Positions 15,261 through 52,122 of a stretch of DNA of 64,000 nucleotides are shown one piece after another (within the stretch, counting starts at the first letter, position 1; every line of letters starts with the position of its first letter). The stretch covers positions 21,910 through 85,909 of the forward strand of contig CAYTZB010000001.1 in the NCBI GenBank assembly GCA_964442455.1, given 5' to 3'. This stretch comes from an uncultured Gammaproteobacteria bacterium. GTDB taxonomy: Bacteria; Patescibacteriota; Microgenomatia; UBA8517; JACQJR01. The translations under genes and the position numbers were made by a program. The notes beneath the pieces are model-generated. The model did not search any database. It had not been told where the DNA came from and saw only the letters and a program-made list of their open reading frames with translations.

Positions 15261-16214
15261 ATGACTAGTAACTATCTAGTAACTGGGGGAGCGGGTTTCA
15301 TCGGCAGTTTCGTAGTGGAGGAGCTTCTTGCCCGTGGTAAAAATGTGACGGTGTTGGACAACTTCAGTTCTGGTTCAAAAGAGAACCTTACCCAGGTCCA
15401 GAAGATTGTCCAGGGCCGTCTTCGAGTCCTGAAGGGCGACATCCGTAAACTGTCGGATCTTGAGAAGGTTTGTCGTGGTATCTCGGTAGTCTATCACATG
15501 GCTGTTCAACCGCTGACATTGGGACTGGAGGACCCCCTTATAATGAACGAGGTGAATAGCACTGGTACTCTCAATACTCTTCATGCTGCCCACCTTGCGG
15601 GTATTCAACGTTTTAACTATATTTCCTCTTCAGAGGTTTATGGAACAGCGCAGTATGTACCTATGGACGAGAATCATCCGCGCGTACCCCTAACCGTGTA
15701 CGCGGCCTCAAAACTTGCTGGCGAAGCGTATGTGCAAGGGTATTACAACACCTACGGTCTAACTTACACTATAATTCGCCCTTTCAACTCATATGGCCCA
15801 CGTCACCGGGACGATGGCTATTGCGCAGTATTATTTCGCTTCTTGCAATGTGTAATCAAAAACGAACCACCCCAAATTTACGGGGATGGTAAGCAGACGC
15901 GCGATATGTCTTATGTTGAGGATACCGCGCGAGGCATCGTACTCGCGGGAGAGTCTCCAAGAGTGATAAATGATGTGGTGAATATCGGTACTGGCCGGGA
16001 GGTGCAAGTTAACGAAGTGGCACAAGCAGTGCTCGAAATACTTGGCTCGAAACTCAAGCCCAGAAAGGTGGCACCCCGGCCAGGGGACGTGCGTAGACAC
16101 CTGGCTGGGATAGCAAAGGCTCAGTATTTACTCGGGTATAAGCCACGCTTCACATTCGCTGAGGGCGTACTTAAGACTATTGAATGGTATTTACAGAAAC
16201 ACTCCAAGAGGTGA
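15261..16214 (+). CDS. NAD-dependent epimerase/dehydratase (extended SDR; UDP-sugar 4-epimerase or 4,6-dehydratase-like). Lies in a GC-rich island.
   Basis: 'VTGGAGFIGS' Rossmann motif and catalytic 'YAASK' (YxxxK); 317 aa. GC content and codon usage (ctg, ggc, cgt) differ markedly from the neighbouring genes. Confidence 0.75.
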   Translation: MTSNYLVTGGAGFIGSFVVEELLARGKNVTVLDNFSSGSKENLTQVQKIVQGRLRVLKGDIRKLSDLEKVCRGISVVYHMAVQPLTLGLEDPLIMNEVNSTGTLNTLHAAHLAGIQRFNYISSSEVYGTAQYVPMDENHPRVPLTVYAASKLAGEAYVQGYYNTYGLTYTIIRPFNSYGPRHRDDGYCAVLFRFLQCVIKNEPPQIYGDGKQTRDMSYVEDTARGIVLAGESPRVINDVVNIGTGREVQVNEVAQAVLEILGSKLKPRKVAPRPGDVRRHLAGIAKAQYLLGYKPRFTFAEGVLKTIEWYLQKHSKR

Positions 16215-16263: not shown

Positions 16264-16770
16264 ATGTTAGGATTAAAACTAATGGTTAAGGCAATTGCTT
16301 TTTTTCTTTTATTTTTTTACATAATTTTTAGTTTACCAGGTGTTGTGTTAGCACAGGAATCACAAACTGAAACTAAAACTAAAGTCGAGGTAGACCACGT
16401 TGCGAATGTCATTGAAAAATTTAGAGAGAAAGTTGTTTTATTCTTTAAATTTTCAAAAAATACCAAAGTAGATTATCAACAATACTTGGTTGAAAAAAGA
16501 CTTGCCGAACTAAAATGGGTTGTGGATAGTAAAGAATGGCAACCGGTTGAGGAAACCTCATCTCGCTACTCAACTTATTTAGGAAATTTTACAGATTTTG
16601 TGATTAAAAACAAACTAACAAGTAAAAAAGAAGAAATTTTAAAAATGTACGAGGAACATCAAAAAATTCTCGATACGTTGCAAAGAAATTTCGAATTTGA
16701 ATCAGGGTTTTGGTTACTTTTACAGCATGATATTAATACTGTAAAAATTTTCTCCGAACGGGTTAAATAA
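16264..16770 (+). CDS. Hypothetical secreted or membrane-anchored protein.
   Basis: N-terminal signal/TM helix 'AIAFFLLFFYIIFSLPGVVLA' followed by a charged, helical 140-aa region. Confidence 0.4.
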   Translation: MLGLKLMVKAIAFFLLFFYIIFSLPGVVLAQESQTETKTKVEVDHVANVIEKFREKVVLFFKFSKNTKVDYQQYLVEKRLAELKWVVDSKEWQPVEETSSRYSTYLGNFTDFVIKNKLTSKKEEILKMYEEHQKILDTLQRNFEFESGFWLLLQHDINTVKIFSERVK

Positions 16771-16783
16771 TTAATTCTTCAGG

Positions 16784-16885
16784 GTGATATACTCATCTTA
16801 CTTGAATTTGCAACTTTTAAGGTATTCGTATATACCCGTTTTCCACAATTTCTAAATGCAAATTAGAGTTAAGCGGGTATATAAT
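16784..16885 (+). promoter_or_regulatory. Conserved ~100-nt intergenic element, copy 1. It has a 57-nt core, a stem-loop (arms 16829-16838 and 16874-16883) and a TATAAT box at 16880-16885. It sits upstream of the wzx-like gene.
   Basis: The core 'gtgatatactcatcttacttgaatttgcaacttttaaggtattcgtatatacccgtt' is 54/57 identical to the reverse complement of 21767-21823. A 10-bp perfect inverted repeat tatatacccg/cgggtatata flanks a 35-nt loop. Confidence 0.55.
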
Positions 16886-16919
16886 GGTCAATAAGTAAAA
16901 TAGTTAGTGTTCTAGTAAG

Positions 16920-18197
16920 ATGTTAAATGGCGTTAAAAATCACTTCCCGAAAAATTTCTCTTTTCAACAAGCTCAACTTTTATCAGGCAGTGCGATTATG
17001 ATTTTTGGAAGTTTTGCGACAAGCTTCATTAACTATTTGTATCACTTGATAATGGGGAGAATTTTAGAACCTGCCAATTATGGCATCTTAGCCTCTGTTA
17101 TATCTTTAGTCGGCCTATTGGTTCTGTTGCCTAATTCCATGGGGTTAGTTGTAACAAAATTAATTGCAAAAGCAAAGAACGAAAAAGAAGTTAGCGAAAA
17201 AGTTGCCACCCTTAATAAAAATGTCTTGTGGTTAGGTGTGGTTTCCTTTTCCGCTCTTGTGCTCTTGAGTCCTTTTATAGCGCAATTTATAAAAGTAGAG
17301 AAATTTCTTATAATTATTGGCCTTTTAGTATTTTTACTATCTTTTCCTTTAATGATGTTTCGTGGAACGCTTCAAGGATTGCTCAAATTTAAAGAGATGG
17401 TTATTAGTCAGACTGTAGAAAATCTCTTGCGACTGCTGGTAGCCGTAGTATTAGTGCTGGTGGGTTTTTCCATTGGTGGAGCCCTTTTCGGACTGGTTTT
17501 AGGAGTATTGGTTGGGTTTATCATTGCATGGCTTTTTGTTAAAAGTTTTTTGAGTTTGTCTAAAGGTAGGCAAAAGTTATCAGTCAATATTCTGTCAACC
17601 GTAAACCAAATATTACCCTTTTTTTTACTTTCAATTTCAATAACTTCCCTATATTCTTCAGATCTAATTTTGGTCAAACATTTTTTCGGTTCATTTGAAG
17701 CCGGAATCTATGGAGCTATGTCATTTTTGGGGAGAATAATTTTTTTTGGAGTGAGCCCTATTACGGCTGTTATGTTTCCAATAGTTGCAAAAAATTACTC
17801 CAAGGGCCAAAGCGGATTGGTCACTTTGAAATGGAGTTTATTGGGGGCATTTTTGATAGCTCTCTTTATAAATTCCATTTATGCATTTTTACCAGAGTTG
17901 GTAATTAAGCAGCTTTACGGTGAAAAATATCTTTTGTCAACTAGCCTTTTGGTATTTTTCGGAATTTTTATAACTTTTGTAACTTTGTCGTTTTTGCTAC
18001 TTAATTATGGTTTGGCGCAAGGCCAGTCACGCATCGTCTTGGCGAGTTTTCTGGCAGCATCCTTACAAATAACTTTTATCTGGATTTATCACCCGACATT
18101 ATTTGCCATTATTCTTATTTCAATTATAATTTCATTTGTCCTTTTTTTATATTTAGTTTTTTATACATTCCGCCAAAGTCTTGGACTTAAACAATGA
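16920..18197 (+). CDS. Wzx-like oligosaccharide/polysaccharide flippase (MOP superfamily, Polysacc_synt).
   Basis: 425 aa with about 12 TM helices in the N-terminal and C-terminal repeat pattern typical of Wzx. Gene context supports the call. Confidence 0.55.
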   Translation: MLNGVKNHFPKNFSFQQAQLLSGSAIMIFGSFATSFINYLYHLIMGRILEPANYGILASVISLVGLLVLLPNSMGLVVTKLIAKAKNEKEVSEKVATLNKNVLWLGVVSFSALVLLSPFIAQFIKVEKFLIIIGLLVFLLSFPLMMFRGTLQGLLKFKEMVISQTVENLLRLLVAVVLVLVGFSIGGALFGLVLGVLVGFIIAWLFVKSFLSLSKGRQKLSVNILSTVNQILPFFLLSISITSLYSSDLILVKHFFGSFEAGIYGAMSFLGRIIFFGVSPITAVMFPIVAKNYSKGQSGLVTLKWSLLGAFLIALFINSIYAFLPELVIKQLYGEKYLLSTSLLVFFGIFITFVTLSFLLLNYGLAQGQSRIVLASFLAASLQITFIWIYHPTLFAIILISIIISFVLFLYLVFYTFRQSLGLKQ

Positions 18198-20317
18198 AAT
18201 TTTTTCTGTCTCTTTTTCTAGGAATTTTATTTTTTATTTCTGGTTTCCTTACCTTAGGGAACTATGGAATATCTTGGGATGAACCAACTCATTTTAAAAG
18301 AGGGCAAGGATACCTTTGGTACCTTTTAACTGGGGATAATACTTACCAAAAACTACCACCTTATGATTTATTACGTGCTCAAAACGACTCCAGCTATCAT
18401 GAAAGAAGTATTTACCAAGATGATAAACACAACGCAGCATTTTATAGAACAATAGATGGTACTCATCCGCCCCTTGCCGATATTCTTTCCTCTAGCACAA
18501 ATATGGTTTTTTACCAGAGACTTGGGATTTTGGGAGATATTGAGAGTTATCACCTTTTTGAAATTTTTGTCGCCAGCATTGGAGTAGCTGTCTTGTTTCT
18601 GTTTGTTTATGAGAGTTTTGGGCTCATAGCAGCATTTTTTTCAACTATCATTTTTGCGACTTACCCCCTTTTTTGGGCAGAATCCCATTTTAATATAAAA
18701 GATCCGATTGAGACATCGTGGATTATTTTAACTCTTTACTTTTTATGGAAAGGTATAAAGAGTTCGTCAGCCCGCTTTATATTAATATCTTCGGTTTTTG
18801 CAGGTTTTGCACTTGCAACAAAATTCAATGTAATTTTCCTGCCGCTTATAGTACTGCCATGGTTATTCTTTGTATTTAAAACCCATAAAAAAGAATTTCT
18901 TTCATTTGTTAAAACCCGAAGATTTCTTTTATTGATTTTTCTTTATCCAATAATTGTATTTACAATTTTTTATGTTTCCTATCCATTTTTATGGGATAGC
19001 CCTATTGCTAACATTGGTAAAGTTTTGACATATTATCAAAGGAATGCACTGGACCCCACATTTGCAAATGCAGTGCTACCAAGTTGGCCATTTTATGCCA
19101 TAAGGTGGGTAATATTGACTGCTCCACCCCTAGTATTGTTAGGACTAATATTGAGCTTGGTGTTTCTCAAAAAGAATTTAACTAAATATCATGGCTTTTT
19201 CCTGCTGGTTCTTTTGTGGTTTCTTGTGCCAGTCTTGAGAGTGAGCATACCTGGAGTGAATATTTACGGGGGAGTAAGGCAAATAATGGAATACATTCCG
19301 GCAATAGCCATTCTTGCTGGAGTGGGAATAGGTAAGATGGTTACATGGTTACATGGTTACATGGTTAAGCTGAAGAAGCCATATAACTATTTAGCTATTC
19401 AGCCATTAACGTTATTAGTTATTTTTACATTTTCCATTTATCCCCTTATTAGACTTCACCCCAACGAGAACGTTTATTTTAATTTTCTTATTGGAGGTTT
19501 AAAGGGTGCAGCGGAATCCGGTGTACCAGCGGCAGGAAATTCGTTTGGTAACGCTTATTATCAAGGGGCAATGTGGATTAATGAAAATGCAATCCAGGAT
19601 GCAAAATTGACCCTTATTCAAGGGTCATCGGTTAATATACCTAAATATAAGTTACGCAGTGATATTAACTTATCGGATGACTATTTTAGCGGGATTAATC
19701 GTGATGGAGAATATTTAATGGCATTAACATACAATTATGAGCATAAAGAAAATTTCTATGCATGGGAGTATGTAGAGCGCTTCCTCGAGCCAATTTACGA
19801 GGTAAAAGCAGACAACGTGCCAATACTTAAGATCTGGAAAAATGATTTAGAACACACAAAACCAGAGTATAGATTTGAGGAAAAATCATTTAACGGAAAA
19901 ATAGTTACGGAACAAAAAAACCAAATGATTATGTTTAAAACAGAAAAAGAAGTTCTATTATCTCGACTCATTCTTTCATATGAGCCTGTAAATGGGTGTT
20001 CGCTACCCCGCGCATCGGTCATTGATACGTCTTTGGATGGGCAAACTTGGTTCAGAGAAAAAGATCCATTAGCGTTTTCTCAAGTAGGCAAAAAAAGCAG
20101 CTCTTTTAAGCCTGCCTGGGCAGATTTCTCATCTGAATCTTTATATAGCTCCGTGGTAAATGGAAATATGATACAGAGGAGCGAAACTGTATTTTACTTC
20201 GCAGCCAGAAAAGCAAAGTTCATCCGTCTTAATTTAGATAATGAGCAATCATGTATTTTACATAACCCCCTTGCTATGATTGAGCATCTAGTTCCACACA
20301 CAGGAAATGAAGATTAG
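18194..20317 (+). CDS. GT-C fold glycosyltransferase (PMT/ArnT-like, GT39/GT83-type) with a C-terminal extracytoplasmic beta-rich domain.
   Basis: N-terminal 'GNYGISWDEPTHF' resembles the DE motif in the first loop of PMT/ArnT enzymes, within a polytopic N-terminus. The last ~200 aa are hydrophilic. Contains an octamer tandem repeat at 19337-19367. Confidence 0.55.
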   Translation: MKFFLSLFLGILFFISGFLTLGNYGISWDEPTHFKRGQGYLWYLLTGDNTYQKLPPYDLLRAQNDSSYHERSIYQDDKHNAAFYRTIDGTHPPLADILSSSTNMVFYQRLGILGDIESYHLFEIFVASIGVAVLFLFVYESFGLIAAFFSTIIFATYPLFWAESHFNIKDPIETSWIILTLYFLWKGIKSSSARFILISSVFAGFALATKFNVIFLPLIVLPWLFFVFKTHKKEFLSFVKTRRFLLLIFLYPIIVFTIFYVSYPFLWDSPIANIGKVLTYYQRNALDPTFANAVLPSWPFYAIRWVILTAPPLVLLGLILSLVFLKKNLTKYHGFFLLVLLWFLVPVLRVSIPGVNIYGGVRQIMEYIPAIAILAGVGIGKMVTWLHGYMVKLKKPYNYLAIQPLTLLVIFTFSIYPLIRLHPNENVYFNFLIGGLKGAAESGVPAAGNSFGNAYYQGAMWINENAIQDAKLTLIQGSSVNIPKYKLRSDINLSDDYFSGINRDGEYLMALTYNYEHKENFYAWEYVERFLEPIYEVKADNVPILKIWKNDLEHTKPEYRFEEKSFNGKIVTEQKNQMIMFKTEKEVLLSRLILSYEPVNGCSLPRASVIDTSLDGQTWFREKDPLAFSQVGKKSSSFKPAWADFSSESLYSSVVNGNMIQRSETVFYFAARKAKFIRLNLDNEQSCILHNPLAMIEHLVPHTGNED
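19337..19367 (+). repeat. Tandem octanucleotide repeat (atggttac) x3.9 inside a GT-C coding sequence.
   Basis: Direct read: atggttac atggttac atggttac atggtta. The unit length is not a multiple of 3. Confidence 0.9.
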
Positions 20318-21023
20318 TATCCAAGACTATCAAGAGAATGCACTGGAGAATTTGGCACAGGTAGGTAATTATAACGAATGGCTCGTATCCAAATTTGAGA
20401 AGTATTTGGGGGAAAACATTTTAGAGGTAGGTAGTGGATTGGGTAATGTTACTATTAAAGTTAAGGATAAGGGTTTCAGTATTACCCCTACGGATATTAA
20501 CCGCTCTTTTCTTAAACCTTTAAAAAGAATTAACAAAAATGCGTTTTATTTTAATATCATTAATCCAAAACCCCATATAAGGGGTAAATTTGATACGATT
20601 GTCGCTATTAATGTATTGGAACATGTTCGTGATGACATCCGTGCAATTAAAAACATATATAATTTACTTCCTGATAATGGGATGTTTATAGTTCTTGTTC
20701 CCGCTCACAGCATTCTTTTCGGCTCATATGATAGATTAGCCGGTCACCATCAGCGTTATTCAAAAAGTAGTTTTTATAGGAAACTAACAAGCGCAGGTTT
20801 TTTGGTCGAAAGCATAAAATATTACAATAAATTATCAGCTTTAGGTTGGTTTATAAATGCAAGATTATTTAAACGAAAAGGATTTCCAAAATTACAATTA
20901 TCTATTCTTAAATTATTAGTTCCTTTCTTGGATTTTTTTGATAAAATAATCCCTTTTGATTTTGGTATATCAATTATATGTATTGCAAGTAAAAGCAGTG
21001 CTAATTTGAGAAGCGGTGCTTGA
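20307..21023 (+). CDS. Class I SAM-dependent methyltransferase.
   Basis: 'ILEVGSGLGNVT' motif I and 'TIVAINVLEHVRDD...NGMFIVLVPA' motifs II/III. Confidence 0.6.
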   Translation: MKISIQDYQENALENLAQVGNYNEWLVSKFEKYLGENILEVGSGLGNVTIKVKDKGFSITPTDINRSFLKPLKRINKNAFYFNIINPKPHIRGKFDTIVAINVLEHVRDDIRAIKNIYNLLPDNGMFIVLVPAHSILFGSYDRLAGHHQRYSKSSFYRKLTSAGFLVESIKYYNKLSALGWFINARLFKRKGFPKLQLSILKLLVPFLDFFDKIIPFDFGISIICIASKSSANLRSGA

Positions 21024-21708
21024 GTAATACCCAAATACCTACTAAACCGTTCCAAAAGTTAATTTTCTTTCCTTCTGAAAATTTTCTCGGATGGTAACTG
21101 ATAGGCACTTCTGCTATTTTATAACCCCTTTTTAAGAGTTTAACCACAAATTCGATATCCCACTCAAAGCTTTTACTTTTTGCAGATGCATTGTTTAAGC
21201 AATCCCTAGTATATAATTTGTAACAAGTGTATATGTCGGTAATTTTTGCACCGTAAAGAAGGTTAATCAAGTGAGTTGATAGATTTATACCCCAAACATA
21301 TATTATTTCGTCTTTTTTAGAAACGTGCGCATGTCGGGAACCAAAGATTATTTGAACATCTTTTCTTTCTAACCTCTTGAGGAGTTTAAATATGTCATTG
21401 GGGTTGTACTCTAAATCTGCGTCTTGTACTATTACTGCATCCCCGGTAACATACCTTAACGCCGTTTGTATAGCTGCCCCCTTACCATTATTTATTCTGT
21501 GCGAAATAAACTTAATTTTGGGCTTTTTGACTTTTATCAAATTTTGAATTATTTTCTTTGATTTATCAGAAGATCCGTCATCAACAATTATTATCTCCTT
21601 CTGCCACTTTCCTAATTTAGCTCGCATTACCCTCTTTAATAATTCCTCAATAGTATTTTCCTCATTAAAAACTGGTATAATTATTGATAATTTTTGCTTG
21701 GACTTCAT
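21001..21708 (-). CDS. GT2 polyprenyl-phosphate sugar synthase (DPM1/GtrB/ArnC-like).
   Basis: 'LSIIIPVFNEENTIEELL...EIIIVDDGSSDKS' with 'DADLEY' (DXD) and a C-terminal amphipathic region; 235 aa. Confidence 0.7.
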   Translation of the reverse strand: MKSKQKLSIIIPVFNEENTIEELLKRVMRAKLGKWQKEIIIVDDGSSDKSKKIIQNLIKVKKPKIKFISHRINNGKGAAIQTALRYVTGDAVIVQDADLEYNPNDIFKLLKRLERKDVQIIFGSRHAHVSKKDEIIYVWGINLSTHLINLLYGAKITDIYTCYKLYTRDCLNNASAKSKSFEWDIEFVVKLLKRGYKIAEVPISYHPRKFSEGKKINFWNGLVGIWVLLKHRFSN

Positions 21709-21720
21709 GATTACTTTTGT

Positions 21721-21823
21721 GATTATATACCTGTTTAACTTTAATCTGCACCTGCCTAATAATAAAAACAGGTATATACGAATACCTTAAAAGTTGCAAA
21801 TTAAACTAAGATGAGTATATCAC
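21721..21823 (-). promoter_or_regulatory. Conserved ~100-nt intergenic element, copy 2, in inverted orientation. Stem arms lie at 21724-21736 and 21766-21778, with TATAAT on the minus strand at 21722-21727. It sits upstream of the minus-strand GT2 gene and overlaps the start codon of the 21811 gene.
   Basis: The reverse complement of 21767-21823 is 54/57 identical to 16784-16840. A 13-bp perfect inverted repeat tatatacctgttt/aaacaggtatata flanks a 29-nt loop. Stem changes are compensatory relative to copy 1 (C/G to T/A). Confidence 0.55.
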
Positions 21824-24174
21824 TAATTGAACTACTGAATAAAATAGTGGTCTTTGTTAGAGGAAACTTCTTGTTATCACTAATTGTTATTATAGGTTTT
21901 CTTCTTCGTATTATTGGGACAAGTCCGGGTTACTACATGCATGGATATGAAGTTATATATGGGGATGCAGTATCAATGATTTTAAATAAGACGATTGGCT
22001 TAAGTCTTACCAATTTAGCTTATCCCCCTTTAGTATTTTGGATAATGGCAATAGTTTTCTTATTTTTCTTTATCCCCTTGGCGTGGCTTTTATACGCTGT
22101 TTCTCATTTTCCAGACTTTTTGCAATTAGTAGCTGATGGTATCGGTGGGAATATAAATTTTGTGGCGCAGTTAGATCAGATATTTAATAAAGAAATTTTG
22201 GGCACAAGGTATTGGCAAAATGCGATGTACTGGGGAAGATACATAACCGCTCTATTTGGAACGGCTAGTGTTATCCTTGGATATAAAGTTGTAATGGAAT
22301 ACTTTGGGAAAAGAATTATGGCACTGGTCGCAGCATTTATGTTGGCCGTAAATTACCGGCTGGTTATTAACAGCCATATGGGGTTTTTTGATATTTACAA
22401 TGTATTTTTCCTCCTTTTAGCGCTTTTTGCTGTTGGAAGATTAATTAAAAAACCAACAATGCCACGCTACATTTTTGCAGCTGTTTGCGTTGTTCTGTCA
22501 TTCTTAGTTAAGTATCAACCATCTGGCTTTGTAGTATTTGGTATCGCCCATTTACTTGTTGCTATTAAAAAATCAAAAAACAAGCGTCACCCCTTTTTAA
22601 AAAATTTCCTTAGTAAGAATATAATAATGTCCGCCATCATAATAGTTGCTATTTTTCTAATCGCGCACGTTGATTATTTTATGCGATTAGATGAGACGTT
22701 GAGCTGGTCGAAATGGGTATGGCTTGCAAACGAATTCCATAAGTATCAAATGTATCTTTTCCCTCTTTCTTATGTTTATCATACGGGTTTAGGTCCGGTT
22801 CTTACCATAATTTCATTGGGTGGTATTATTATTGGATTTCTCATCAAAAGGCACAGAGAACAAACGATTATACTGGTATCCCCAATTTTGCTGTCTTTCT
22901 ATTTGTTCGCTTATTTTTCGACAGGTGGCTACTATACTTATAATCTTCTGATCCCAATTGCTTTAATGCTTATTTTTGCCGCTTTGTTTTTTGGACAAAT
23001 ATTGGAATGGTCCATCAAAAGCTACAGAAATAAAAGTGCTCGTGTTTTCATAATTGGCTTTTATACATTAGCCTTAGTCCTTGTCCTTAAAGAGCATATT
23101 TACAATAGTGCTCTTAGCACGTACATTCTTGCTCAACCTTCTTACAGGATTGTCGCAGAAGATTGGTTAAATAAAAATATAGAGGGACCTGCTGTATTTG
23201 CTACCCATTCCAGTAATCCAAGCGTGCAAAAAGATAAGGTTCAGATTGCTGAACTCCCTAACTTACCAGAAATATTTGGTTACCGTGAGTTTTTAGAAGA
23301 GAAGTACGATTACGCACTTATAGATTTTTTTAAAATTCAGGAAAAGAATTTTTGGTGGATGCTTTCACCTCCTAGAATGCCCACCCAATTCTGGGATAAA
23401 CCGGATGGTTTGTTATCTCAAAACTATCTTGCATTAGCAACCCGTGAATTATTATGGAATCATACAATAAAAGATTTTATGCTGCCTTGGCAAGCATCTG
23501 GATATAACTATGCGGTAACTCAAATAAAGCCCCCATTAAGTTTTGGTAATGCTGCTCTTATAAAAAGATTTGACTTTGAGGGTAAAGATGACTGGACACC
23601 ACTTTTCTTTCTAGAAAAAGATAAAGATAAGTTATTCTGGTCAGAAGAAGGCAAAAAAATCAAAGGAGCATTAGTTATAAAAAAGGGTAAAGAAGCGGGG
23701 AATAATAAGTGGGTAACAGTTCCCGGAGTTATTCGTTGGGAATCGGATGCTCTGCCGGTTAAACCGGGATTCGGTTATAAAGTTACCGGTTGGATTAAAA
23801 ATAGTGAACATATAGAGAAGAAATTTAGGAATGGATTCTTAAGACTAGATTTCTATTCCGAGAGCAATCGAGGAACAAGCTCTGCTTATCAAGAAAATAA
23901 TGAACCATCGATTACAAACCGCCCAGTTATTAGTTTCGTTTCAACAAGACCTTATGGTGAGAGTCAATGGCATAAAGTAGAAGTACAGGGTATTGCACCG
24001 CAAGAGGCAAATTTTATTAAAATTGGTTTTCAAGCCGATGATTCTGTAGTAACTTTATTTTTGGACGAAGTCGAAATTTATGAGACGCTTGATGAGCAAG
24101 AGGAGATAGACATAGAACACTATATAATACCCGACGAAGATTTTTTCCGACCAAGTGACAGCAGTTTTACATGA
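21811..24174 (+). CDS. Polytopic membrane protein (putative GT-C glycosyltransferase) with a C-terminal beta-sandwich, carbohydrate-binding-like domain.
   Basis: 787 aa. N-terminal TM helix 'FLLSLIVIIGFLLRIIG' and 11 or more further helices. C-terminal ~250 aa is hydrophilic with Trp/Gly/Tyr-rich beta-like segments. The start codon lies inside the conserved element, so the true start may be downstream. Confidence 0.45.
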   Translation: MSISLIELLNKIVVFVRGNFLLSLIVIIGFLLRIIGTSPGYYMHGYEVIYGDAVSMILNKTIGLSLTNLAYPPLVFWIMAIVFLFFFIPLAWLLYAVSHFPDFLQLVADGIGGNINFVAQLDQIFNKEILGTRYWQNAMYWGRYITALFGTASVILGYKVVMEYFGKRIMALVAAFMLAVNYRLVINSHMGFFDIYNVFFLLLALFAVGRLIKKPTMPRYIFAAVCVVLSFLVKYQPSGFVVFGIAHLLVAIKKSKNKRHPFLKNFLSKNIIMSAIIIVAIFLIAHVDYFMRLDETLSWSKWVWLANEFHKYQMYLFPLSYVYHTGLGPVLTIISLGGIIIGFLIKRHREQTIILVSPILLSFYLFAYFSTGGYYTYNLLIPIALMLIFAALFFGQILEWSIKSYRNKSARVFIIGFYTLALVLVLKEHIYNSALSTYILAQPSYRIVAEDWLNKNIEGPAVFATHSSNPSVQKDKVQIAELPNLPEIFGYREFLEEKYDYALIDFFKIQEKNFWWMLSPPRMPTQFWDKPDGLLSQNYLALATRELLWNHTIKDFMLPWQASGYNYAVTQIKPPLSFGNAALIKRFDFEGKDDWTPLFFLEKDKDKLFWSEEGKKIKGALVIKKGKEAGNNKWVTVPGVIRWESDALPVKPGFGYKVTGWIKNSEHIEKKFRNGFLRLDFYSESNRGTSSAYQENNEPSITNRPVISFVSTRPYGESQWHKVEVQGIAPQEANFIKIGFQADDSVVTLFLDEVEIYETLDEQEEIDIEHYIIPDEDFFRPSDSSFT

Positions 24175-26423: not shown

Positions 26424-26468
26424 AATTCACTTCTTTTGTTAATCATTTTAATATATCATACTGAATAA

Positions 26469-31337: not shown

Positions 31338-31400
31338 AACAAAACTAGTGTTAATTATATACTAAACTTAGTCTAGGGTGTATTATTTATTATTGTAGAA

Positions 31401-51738: not shown

Positions 51739-52122
51739 ATGGGTAAAGATAGAGAACAAGGGATCGGGTTAAAAGAAAAAGTTCCTGGACTTGCTATGAT
51801 TACAGCAGGTGCAACGGGTTTATGGATAGGTTGGAAAGTTAATCAGTTATGGAGGAAAGCTGTAAATGAACATCCTTCGGGATCACGGTTAAGAGAAGTA
51901 GAGAGAGAATTATCCTCGTTAAGTAAAACTAATTTTGTAGGTTACCTAAATGAATGGTCACGAAATTTTGATGAGAAGGATCGATTAGAAACAGCAATAA
52001 AAGAAGATATAGATCCTTATAACTTTCGTCTGATTGGCAGTAGAGTACTACCTCTTGTTTCGGCTATAGCAGGAGCTGCGGGAGTGTATAGACTTCTTAA
52101 ACCAGGTAGGAAAAAGGGATAG
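51739..52122 (+). CDS. Hypothetical small protein with two TM helices.
   Basis: 127 aa, hydrophobic segments at residues ~18-38 and ~100-120. Confidence 0.35.
   Translation: MGKDREQGIGLKEKVPGLAMITAGATGLWIGWKVNQLWRKAVNEHPSGSRLREVERELSSLSKTNFVGYLNEWSRNFDEKDRLETAIKEDIDPYNFRLIGSRVLPLVSAIAGAAGVYRLLKPGRKKG

Follow-up and report, generated by a model that had tools for sequence, protein, structure and literature searches.

Two inverted copies of a 102-nt element

The window analyzed in this study, a stretch of 64,000 nucleotides (nt) from contig CAYTZB010000001.1 of an uncultivated member of the Patescibacteria (positions 21,910 to 85,909), contains two copies of a 102-nt intergenic element in opposite orientation. 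The local gene order starts with a DUF5667 gene (16264-16770, plus strand), which is followed by copy 1 (16784-16885, plus strand), a gene for a Wzx-like flippase (Polysacc_synt; 16920-18197), a gene for a PMT_2 glycosyltransferase of the GT-C type with 707 amino acids (aa; 18194-20317), a methyltransferase gene (20307-21023), a GT2 glycosyltransferase gene (Glycos_transf_2, 235 aa; 21001-21708, minus strand), copy 2 (21722-21823, minus strand) and a further PMT_2 GT-C gene, which encodes 787 aa (21811-24174, plus strand). The wzx, 707-aa and methyltransferase genes, as assigned by Pfam scan, lie on the plus strand and constitute the operon 3′ of copy 1 (16920-21023). Copy 1 is located between the stop codon of the DUF5667 gene (16770) and the ATG of wzx (16920), and copy 2 fills the divergent spacer between the ATG of the GT2 gene (21708, minus strand) and the ATG of the 787-aa GT-C gene (21811). 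The two transcription units that are headed by the copies do converge, as was stated in an earlier note on this DNA, with the open reading frames (ORFs) 20307-21023 (plus) and 21001-21708 (minus) overlapping by 23 nt. A terminator scan found no terminator-like site between these converging methyltransferase and GT2 ORFs.

Aligned as 102-nt units, both copies are identical at 84 of 102 positions without any gap and share an exact run of 32 nt (columns 22-53 of the unit). A repeat finder reported them as two blocks, the first with 59 nt and 95% complementarity (16784-16842 / 21765-21823) and the second with 29 nt and 86% (16857-16885 / 21722-21750), so that the inverted repeat of the earlier note is found where it had been placed. 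A pattern of the 30-nt core with up to three mismatches matched exactly twice in the window and in none of 100 shuffles, and covariance model R1 scored copy 1 with 115.6 bits and copy 2 with 113.4 bits. Both copies terminate with GGTATATAAT, as had been noticed before, at a distance of 34 nt to the ATG of wzx (copy 1) and 13 nt to the ATG of the GT2 gene (copy 2). The described overlap of copy 2 with the start of the gene at 21811 is likewise real, as the first 13 nt of this ORF are the outer 13 nt of the copy. A local duplication containing coding sequence, which had been named as an observation that would speak against a structured element, is therefore literally true for these 13 nt; yet, the same 13 nt belong to the element elsewhere, too.

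Empty sites in syntenic relatives

The surroundings of copy 2 are conserved in relatives that do not have the element. Orthologues of the 787-aa protein were found in L011, L012 and L013 (72, 68, and 65% identity, respectively), with gene order and orientation being kept. The spacer between the GT2 and GT-C genes of these relatives is only 19-25 nt long and includes a single palindromic AGTATATC box; in L011, for example, it reads CAT|GGACACTTTTGCAAGTATATCATTA|ATG. The edges of the window spacer (CAT GATTACTTTTGTGATTATATA... and ...GAGTATATCACTAATT) are homologous to those of the relatives, and between them lies a block of 92 nt which is missing from L011 and L012. As the spacer of the relatives has only about 25 nt and one box, copy 2 is to be regarded as a 92-nt insertion. 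The window thus has two ancestral A[G/T]TATAT boxes, one per end of the element. Where the orthologues have their ATG, the aligned window codon is an ATT (21826), and the annotated 787-aa protein carries an extension of five residues (MSISL), which starts from an ATG inside the element (21811). An in-frame GTG at 21847 represents an alternative start for this gene.

The junction in front of wzx differs as well. In L012, the wzx ATG follows 2 nt after the stop codon of a preceding 599-aa gene, without spacer and without element, and the same junction in the window holds a GC-rich epimerase gene, the DUF5667 gene and copy 1. Neither nhmmer nor the covariance model detected the element in about 78 kb of syntenic relatives.

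Relatives of the element in other genomes

The search for further copies that the earlier note had called for revealed relatives of the element in other Patescibacteria genomes. Full-length relatives occur in three other contexts, namely the divergent spacers between mreB and a PEGA-domain gene (mreB<>PEGA) of L015/L044 and of L045, and a different spacer in L024. The exact 20-mer of the core yielded no match in 185,579 species genomes and one match in a metagenome collection, on contig L015, which stems from Hainich groundwater. This contig and L044, which is longer, contain a third 102-nt copy, which is located between the PEGA-domain gene and mreB, faces mreB, and has the same boundaries as the window copies in spite of unrelated flanks. 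A looser three-anchor pattern gave 16 matches in species genomes and two in viral contigs, of which only L024 is real (nhmmer E 8e-15). L024 is a metagenome-assembled genome labeled 'Patescibacteria group bacterium', in which a 522-aa gene and a membrane/TPR-like gene flank the copy and leave no further spacer between them; in a comparison aimed at an empty site for this copy, the nearest full-length relatives were only 51-53% identical, and a match with 75% identity covered the C-terminal half only.

The remaining members were all found at the mreB<>PEGA spacer. L045, whose PEGA protein is 75% identical, includes a full-length copy that faces mreB (E 3e-14). L034-L043 (PEGA 76%) contain two tandem units facing the PEGA gene, one of them full-length, with the 3′ box of the first unit being the 5′ box of the second, and the promoter block on their mreB side, TGTAAAGTAGAGTTAAATATGTATATAAT, is clearly homologous to TGCAAATTAGAGTTAAGCGGGTATATAAT of copy 1. 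Three tandem units with partly decayed arms are present in L046 (PEGA 66%), and L047 (PEGA 58%) exhibits a plain mreB<>PEGA spacer of 159 nt without the element. Family members reach scores of 62-116 bits with covariance model R1. In all contexts the boundaries of the element are identical despite unrelated flanks, and in every context the similarity ends at TATATA-type boxes. As judged from its distribution across these relatives, the family is confined to a narrow clade. It seems to be at home in the divergent mreB<>PEGA spacer of Microgenomates/Woesebacteria-like Patescibacteria, where units occur singly or in tandem and in either orientation. A tblastn search of the window for an mreB or PEGA gene yielded no hit.

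The mreB promoter is separated from the ATG of mreB by roughly 95 nt (L034:5663-5760, L044:~125-215, L045:1478-1572), which include another block of about 60 nt (...GCAGGGCAGGG[C/T]TAAATTG[T/C]TA[C/T]ACTTAAT..TGTATTGTGATT.AATT..). It is well conserved between genomes with PEGA proteins of about 75% identity. This block, for which no Rfam match was obtained in L015, may be a conserved mreB leader.

Two divergent promoter-like modules in each copy

The earlier note had proposed, among other possibilities, a shared promoter or operator, and this proposal is supported by the 3′ end of the element, where ATGCAA or GTGCAG is separated by 16 nt from TATATA(AT), by a typical distance between the -10 box and the ATG, and by homology to the mreB promoter block. 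What the note did not include is a mirror-image promoter in the other half of the element, along with the occurrence of the element in other genomes. The arrangement nT[G/A]CAA-N16-TATAxx was found on both strands of all full-length copies tested (5/5). The rightward module (P_right) has its -35 box at columns 73-78 and its -10 box at columns 95-100, the latter overlapping a TATAAT at columns 97-102; the leftward module (P_left) has its -35 box at columns 30-25 and its -10 box at columns 8-3.

P_right of copy 1 (16856-16885, plus strand) is composed of ATGCAA (16856-16861), a 16-nt spacer and TATATA (16878-16883), which overlaps TATAAT (16880-16885), and faces wzx. P_right of copy 2 (21722-21751, minus strand), with the GT2 gene downstream, is composed of GTGCAG (21746-21751), a 16-nt spacer, TATATA (21724-21729) and TATAAT (21722-21727). 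The block TGCAAATTAGAGTTAAGCGGGTATATAAT in P_right of copy 1 is homologous not only to the mreB promoter block of L034, but also to that of L045. P_left of copy 2 (21794-21821, plus strand) contains TTGCAA (21794-21799), a 16-nt spacer and TATATC (21816-21821) and faces the GT-C gene, with its -10 box overlapping codons 2-4 of the annotated 787-aa ORF. P_left of copy 1 (16786-16813, minus strand) has the same layout (TTGCAA 16808-16813, a 16-nt spacer, TATATC 16786-16791), but is directed into the 3′ end of the DUF5667 gene, and only a dead ORF (M-S-I-S-P-stop) follows downstream. A conserved small ORF within the element was considered and rejected, as only M-S-I-S-P-stop (copy 1) and M-T-I-stop (L015) are read from the minus strand.

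Between the two modules lies a nearly invariant core of 23 nt, CTTTTAAGGTATTCGTATATACC (copy 1: 16814-16836, plus strand; copy 2: 21771-21793, minus strand). None of the six full-length copies deviates from the others within a 19-nt stretch of this core, AGGTATTCGTATATACC, and its flanking T's. The core includes two palindromic sequences, one imperfect (GGTAT-N6-ATACC) and one perfect (GTATATAC; 16828-16835 in copy 1), and it is possible that it serves as an operator or UP region. In addition, a TATA[C/G]T box is conserved at columns 5-10.

The position of the -10 boxes close to the start codons matches the habits of the window. Many of its genes exhibit a -10-like box that ends 9-16 nt before the ATG, without a Shine-Dalgarno sequence. 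The gene at 51739 represents a canonical case (TTGACA-16-TATATT + 13 nt + ATG), and the divergent gene pairs 24966/26469 and 30474/31401 each have one common palindromic -10 box (26424-26468; 31338-31400). This suggests that near-leaderless mRNAs are common in the window organism. The GT2 genes of the syntenic relatives (TATACT + 13 nt + ATG) show the geometry of copy 2, and P_left of L024 is followed by the ATG of its divergent gene in a comparable manner (TATATT + 8 nt + ATG). The palindromic -10-like boxes of the two divergent pairs read TGATATATTA and AGTATATAAT, respectively, and a -10 box near the ATG without a Shine-Dalgarno sequence was also seen upstream of 13419, 51739, and 52168. 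A generic promoter scan did not list the sites of copies 1 and 2, because their -35 boxes match TTGACA at fewer than four of six positions.

An inverted repeat with covarying arms

Each copy contains an inverted repeat. In copy 1 (16829-16883, plus strand) the 5′ arm TATATACCCGTTT (16829-16841) and the 3′ arm AAGCGGGTATATA (16871-16883) enclose a loop at 16842-16870, and in copy 2 (21724-21778, minus strand) the arms TATATACCTGTTT (21766-21778) and AAACAGGTATATA (21724-21736) enclose a loop at 21737-21765. The stem, described previously as having 10 bp, actually comprises 13 bp (columns 46-58 with 88-100), with one G.U pair in copy 1 and 13 perfect pairs in copy 2. The loops had been regarded as unrelated and as differing in length (35 versus 29 nt). 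Both are, however, 29 nt long and differ only in a patch of 14 nt (16843-16856 versus 21751-21764), and their 3′ part TGCA[A/G]ATTA[G/A]AGTT is conserved between the copies. With AGGCAGGT, the patch of copy 2 includes a sequence that nearly repeats the 3′ arm AAACAGGT, and in the minimum free energy fold of this copy the 5′ arm pairs with the patch (21751-21764) instead of the 3′ arm. The patch of copy 2 looks like a small templated rearrangement.

The compensatory exchange of a C-G for a T-A pair, by which the stem had attracted attention, was confirmed and is part of a wider pattern. Among three copies, 5 of the 13 pairs are changed on both sides and none is broken. In the six full-length copies 94% of the cells are paired and six pairs are changed on both sides, a score that was not reached in any of 500 shuffles, whereas register-shift controls on the same copies were only 25-62% paired. 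With ten units, including partial ones, 92% of the cells are paired and 13 cells are changed on both sides. For this comparison the hairpin region of the mixed-length units was aligned alone, as MAFFT on whole units misplaced the 5′ arms of the short ones, and the number of independent copies, about 6-10 and partly related, is small for covariation statistics. RNAalifold independently recovered the same helix, and the two copies have fold z-scores of -2.6 and -3.7. The element thus contains one covariation-supported helix of 13-14 bp, without a multi-helix architecture.

The variation in the distal arms is not restricted to single pairs, but falls into three complementary alleles (CC[C/T]GTTT/AAAC[G/A]GG, CC[C/T]AAAAT/ATTTT[G/A]GG, and CCTATTTA/TAAATATG). 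Even among ten near-identical strains, the single polymorphism in the 338-nt mreB<>PEGA spacer (L034 versus L040, position 5860) is a C-to-T change in the 5′ arm of the hairpin, which turns a C.A mismatch into a T-A pair. The helix brackets the -35 box of P_right, with the 5′ arm being located upstream of this box and the 3′ arm comprising the end of the promoter spacer plus the -10 box, so that the central palindromic box GTATATAC pairs with the rightward -10 region. The imperfections of the stem are G.U pairs on the sense strand in copy 1 and L024 and on the antisense strand in L034 X1 and X2.

The ends of the element (columns 1-29 with 74-102) do not show such a pattern. Their pairing exhibits no compensatory change and 10 of 29 pairs include unpaired cells, and pairing of terminal inverted repeats was consequently rejected as a conserved structure. 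A terminator scan listed no intrinsic terminator at either copy, and the stem is followed by ATGGTCAA in copy 1 and ATCACAAA in copy 2, neither of which is a U-tract. A search against Rfam yielded no match at the gathering threshold, and the matches with E up to 10 were only eukaryotic miRNA/snoRNA noise. Family members differ in the distance between stem and start codon (13, 34, ~60, ~100 nt), and no Shine-Dalgarno sequence is present at the element, so that no platform for sequestration of a ribosome binding site is seen.

Further features of the window

The window has a G+C content of about 37% and represents, as a whole, one glycan/cell-envelope island with GT1, GT2, and GT4 transferases, a Wzy_C protein (54199), many SAM methyltransferases, four F5/8-type-C proteins, at least five PMT_2 GT-C enzymes (18194, 21811, 47933, 55592, and probably others) and two Wzx-like flippases (16920 and 41634). 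Among the proteins encoded in the 64 kb no recombinase, integrase, invertase, or transposase was found, and scans of the window for tRNA genes and Rfam families gave no match. An old duplication of the GT2/GT-C module was also considered; as the 707-aa and 787-aa PMT_2 proteins share no BLASTP similarity, it was excluded.

The NAD-dependent epimerase/dehydratase gene upstream of the DUF5667 gene (15261-16214) differs from the rest of the window by its G+C content (0.494 versus 0.37) and is only 28% identical to the epimerase of L014; it was probably acquired horizontally. A perfect 8-nt tandem repeat, ATGGTTAC (3.9 units at 19337-19367), lies inside the ORF of the 707-aa PMT_2 enzyme (18194-20317) and encodes an eight-residue insertion, MVTWLHGY, that is missing from the orthologues of L012 and L013. 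A change by one unit would shift the reading frame, and contig L002 from another sample stops exactly at this array. Taken together, these features suggest a slipped-strand, phase-variable expression of the 707-aa glycosyltransferase.

Discussion

The two copies in the window are most plausibly additional copies of a bidirectional, sigma-70-type promoter cassette of the mreB/PEGA spacer, which were ectopically placed in front of sugar-coat genes, and we consider this explanation to be probable. The most likely source would be the mreB<>PEGA spacer of the window lineage itself, from which the cassette would have been copied twice. One of these events would have brought copy 2 into the ancestral spacer between the GT2 and GT-C genes (about 25 nt), where it would have split the only palindromic -10 box in two. 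The other would have brought copy 1 in front of wzx after the operon had been separated from its upstream genes. As wzx is separated by the epimerase and DUF5667 genes, copy 1 would supply this operon with a promoter of its own. Because the copies end exactly at TATATA-type boxes, a microhomology- or recombination-mediated templated insertion appears more plausible as the copying mechanism than transposition. In this scenario, genes of the cell envelope at different loci might come under common control.

Several points weigh against this explanation. We infer promoter activity and transcription start sites from consensus geometry alone, and the source copy is presumed to lie in the mreB<>PEGA spacer of the same organism. 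The start codon and the promoter of the 787-aa gene are uncertain, as the position of the ancestral ATG is occupied by an ATT, and if P_left initiated transcription at the canonical distance, the annotated ATG (21811) would be left upstream of the transcription start site. The near-invariant core of 19-23 nt exceeds the needs of a plain promoter, as does the strong complementary covariation of the hairpin arms, and both point to an extra layer, for example an operator or a structure. Selection on a DNA or RNA hairpin and template switching during replication could each explain how the complementarity of the arms is kept. Template switching is known to perfect and maintain inverted repeats and to give multi-base changes that look compensatory (PMC8794818, PMC5941160), and in the present case it could be seeded by the conserved 8-bp GGTATATA/TATATACC core. 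Finally, the terminal symmetry (20 of 29 positions) and the duplicated TATAT box would also fit a miniature inverted-repeat transposable element (MITE) with a target-site duplication.

A more far-reaching alternative, which appears rather unlikely, is a truly mobile 'plug-in' bidirectional promoter that homes into TATATA -10 boxes and moves between genomes, with its hairpin being selected as a nucleic-acid structure. By analogy to the logic of REP/RAYT or IS200-like systems, the hairpin could then be recognized by an enzyme for single-strand-DNA transposition or recombination; it could also act as a supercoil-sensitive cruciform or as an RNA element coupling both divergent promoters. The genes for MreB, the PEGA surface protein and the Wzx/GT2/GT-C glycan proteins could, in such a case, form one regulon via the invariant GGTATTCGTATATACC site. 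That the gene family flanking the L024 copy is typical of Parcubacteria-type lineages, with the home locus being Microgenomates-like, would be in agreement with movement between genomes.

The idea of a cis-regulatory leader RNA was also put forward in the earlier note, as an attenuator or riboswitch-like RNA. Transcription would start from an upstream -10 box, either the TATA[C/G]T box at columns 5-10 or the preceding tandem unit, and yield a transcript with core and hairpin, the latter being kept by selection for RNA pairing and modulating stability or translation of the downstream gene. The stem covariation itself is real and even stronger than initially described: the pairing in six copies with its six double-sided changes, the collapse of the register-shift controls, the recovery of the helix by RNAalifold, and the negative fold z-scores all argue for a leader. 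Conservation of the TATA[C/G]T box also fits, and in L034, L046, and L015 an upstream tandem promoter would transcribe the hairpin of the next unit. The leader itself is, however, doubtful, and we regard it as unlikely. It belongs to no Rfam family, lacks a U-tract after the stem, and has no consistent distance between stem and start codon. Every copy carries -35 and -10 boxes within the loop and the 3′ arm of the presumed RNA structure. Moreover, among units that look functional, the 5′ arm is lost at the proximal PEGA promoter of L045 and the arms are decayed in the second unit of L046 (U2) and on the mreB side of L034, and the imperfections of the stem, G.U or A.C, are distributed without strand bias (L034 X1, X2).

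Equally unlikely in our view is a promoter-carrying MITE of the Correia/CREE type, with imperfect terminal inverted repeats (TIRs) of 29 nt that end with TATATA, a transposase acting in trans, and insertion into TATATA (-10) boxes, by which the target would be duplicated. The sharp and identical boundaries in unrelated contexts, the occurrence in at least three different genomes, and the duplicated A[G/T]TATAT box of the filled compared with the empty site are what such an element would leave behind. The profile of the element even matches its own reverse complement weakly (E 0.003-0.03), with the 20 symmetric terminal positions mentioned above. At the orthologous spacer the unit can have opposite orientations, facing mreB in L015 and L045 and the PEGA gene in the case of the full unit of L034, and known MITEs carry partial promoters at their ends (PMC3488235). 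Yet, the terminal symmetry can be fully explained by two equally designed promoters, and terminal pairing shows no compensatory change and many broken cells. In a typical MITE the termini would be better conserved than the core, and here it is the other way round. Copy numbers are low, too, with two copies in 64 kb, none in about 78 kb of close relatives and a single true match per collection scan, and the window encodes no transposase. As the duplicated box is palindromic and forms the element ends in every copy, the apparent target duplication is inseparable from the termini.

It is even less probable that the pair is a neutral relic of a local duplication, whose stem complementarity is purely a product of quasi-palindrome template switching. 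This mutational process does keep inverted repeats without selection (PMC8794818, PMC5941160), older units show arm decay, and the leftward half of copy 1 faces no gene. Neutrality is hard to reconcile, however, with a core that stays invariant over 19-23 nt where the flanking proteins are about 75% identical or unrelated, with the position of both copies exactly where operons need a promoter, and with a promoter geometry that is preserved on both strands of all copies.

The earlier note had also proposed that the copies delimit an invertible or mobilised segment of 5 kb (16784-21823). Such a phase-variable or mobile segment is hardly credible: although 59-nt inverted repeats of 95% with a 32-nt exact run flank 4.9 kb, the arrangement of the genes is the ancestral one, as it is found unchanged in L012, where the repeats are missing, the window encodes neither invertase nor integrase, a crossover in columns 22-53 would leave each operon with its proximal promoter (columns 73-102) and hence not switch expression, and the element is single-copy elsewhere (L024, L045). 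Short-read assemblies do break at both copies, but all of these contigs end inside the exact run of 30-32 nt, as an assembly with k=31 requires, so that they are uninformative on orientation and were rejected as evidence for inversion.

To our knowledge, hardly anything has been learned about promoters or about regulatory rewiring in the Patescibacteria, which are uncultivated and have reduced genomes. The locus described here is best read as promoter reuse in this group, and as a case that is clear, but not an unusual one. Its value lies in being a concrete and datable example, in which an ancestral spacer with a single common -10 box and a length of about 25 nt would have been upgraded by a 92-nt insertion to a two-way promoter and a second copy would have rescued an operon that was cut off from its upstream genes. 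It further provides candidate promoter features for the clade, namely TTGCAA-N16-TATAAT, leaders of a few nt and a lack of Shine-Dalgarno sequences, as well as a small and clean test case for whether the covariation of inverted repeats in promoters stems from selection or from template-switch mutation. Should the invariant core be an operator, it would hint at a common regulation of genes for cell shape, surface proteins, and glycans.

Comparison with known systems

Correia- and ERIC-type elements are intergenic, about 100-150 nt long, have terminal inverted symmetry, TATA-like ends and outward promoters, and give rise to hairpin-forming RNA. Correia elements number in the hundreds; their TIRs are well conserved, and their target duplication is TA. 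The window element resembles them in size and in its outward promoters. It is, however, found in only two copies in 64 kb, its termini are its least conserved part, and its constrained hairpin is internal instead of terminal. With site-specific invertible segments, such as fimS, hin, and the polysaccharide promoters of Bacteroides, the window segment shares the flanking inverted repeats; unlike them, it is accompanied by no recombinase in 64 kb and was seen in one orientation, which is the same in L012.

Ordinary back-to-back divergent sigma-70 promoters have the same layout as the element, with -35 boxes inside, -10 boxes outside, and regulatory sequence in between. What sets the element apart from such pairs is that it is a discrete, copyable unit of 102 nt with a central palindromic box, GTATATAC. 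Its hairpin resembles template-switched quasi-palindromes (PMC8794818; PMC5941160), both by arms that differ by whole blocks (GTTT/AAAC, AAAAT/ATTTT, ATTTA/TAAAT) and by a pair-restoring population polymorphism in the family. Template switching could explain the matched arms, but not the conservation of the core and the promoter boxes.

The closest parallel are the putative mobile promoters, which were described as similar upstream regions of 50-100 nt in front of non-homologous genes with non-homologous upstream neighbors (Matus-Garcia, Nijveen and van Passel 2012, PMC3488235), with a related account being given under the title 'Promoter reuse in prokaryotes' (PMC3575422). Most of their families comprise two members with about 92% identity, and some are common to several genomes; recombination-mediated duplication and MITE-like carriers were proposed as spreading routes, and CREE/NEMIS of Neisseria and ERIC are cited there as carrying partial promoters at their termini (PMC3488235). 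The definition asks for at least 50 nt with at least 80% identity, and the window copies share 59 nt with 95% identity (84/102 overall). Their downstream coding sequences are non-homologous (Polysacc_synt Wzx-like versus Glycos_transf_2), and so are the upstream ones (DUF5667 versus PMT_2 GT-C). By all sequence criteria the pair can be assigned to this class, its promoter activity being presumed. The window element differs from these putative mobile promoters in several respects. As a cassette it is bidirectional and complete and occupies divergent spacers, the arms of its internal inverted repeat covary, it resides in a Patescibacteria host, and it has a traceable home locus as well as an explicit empty site in relatives.

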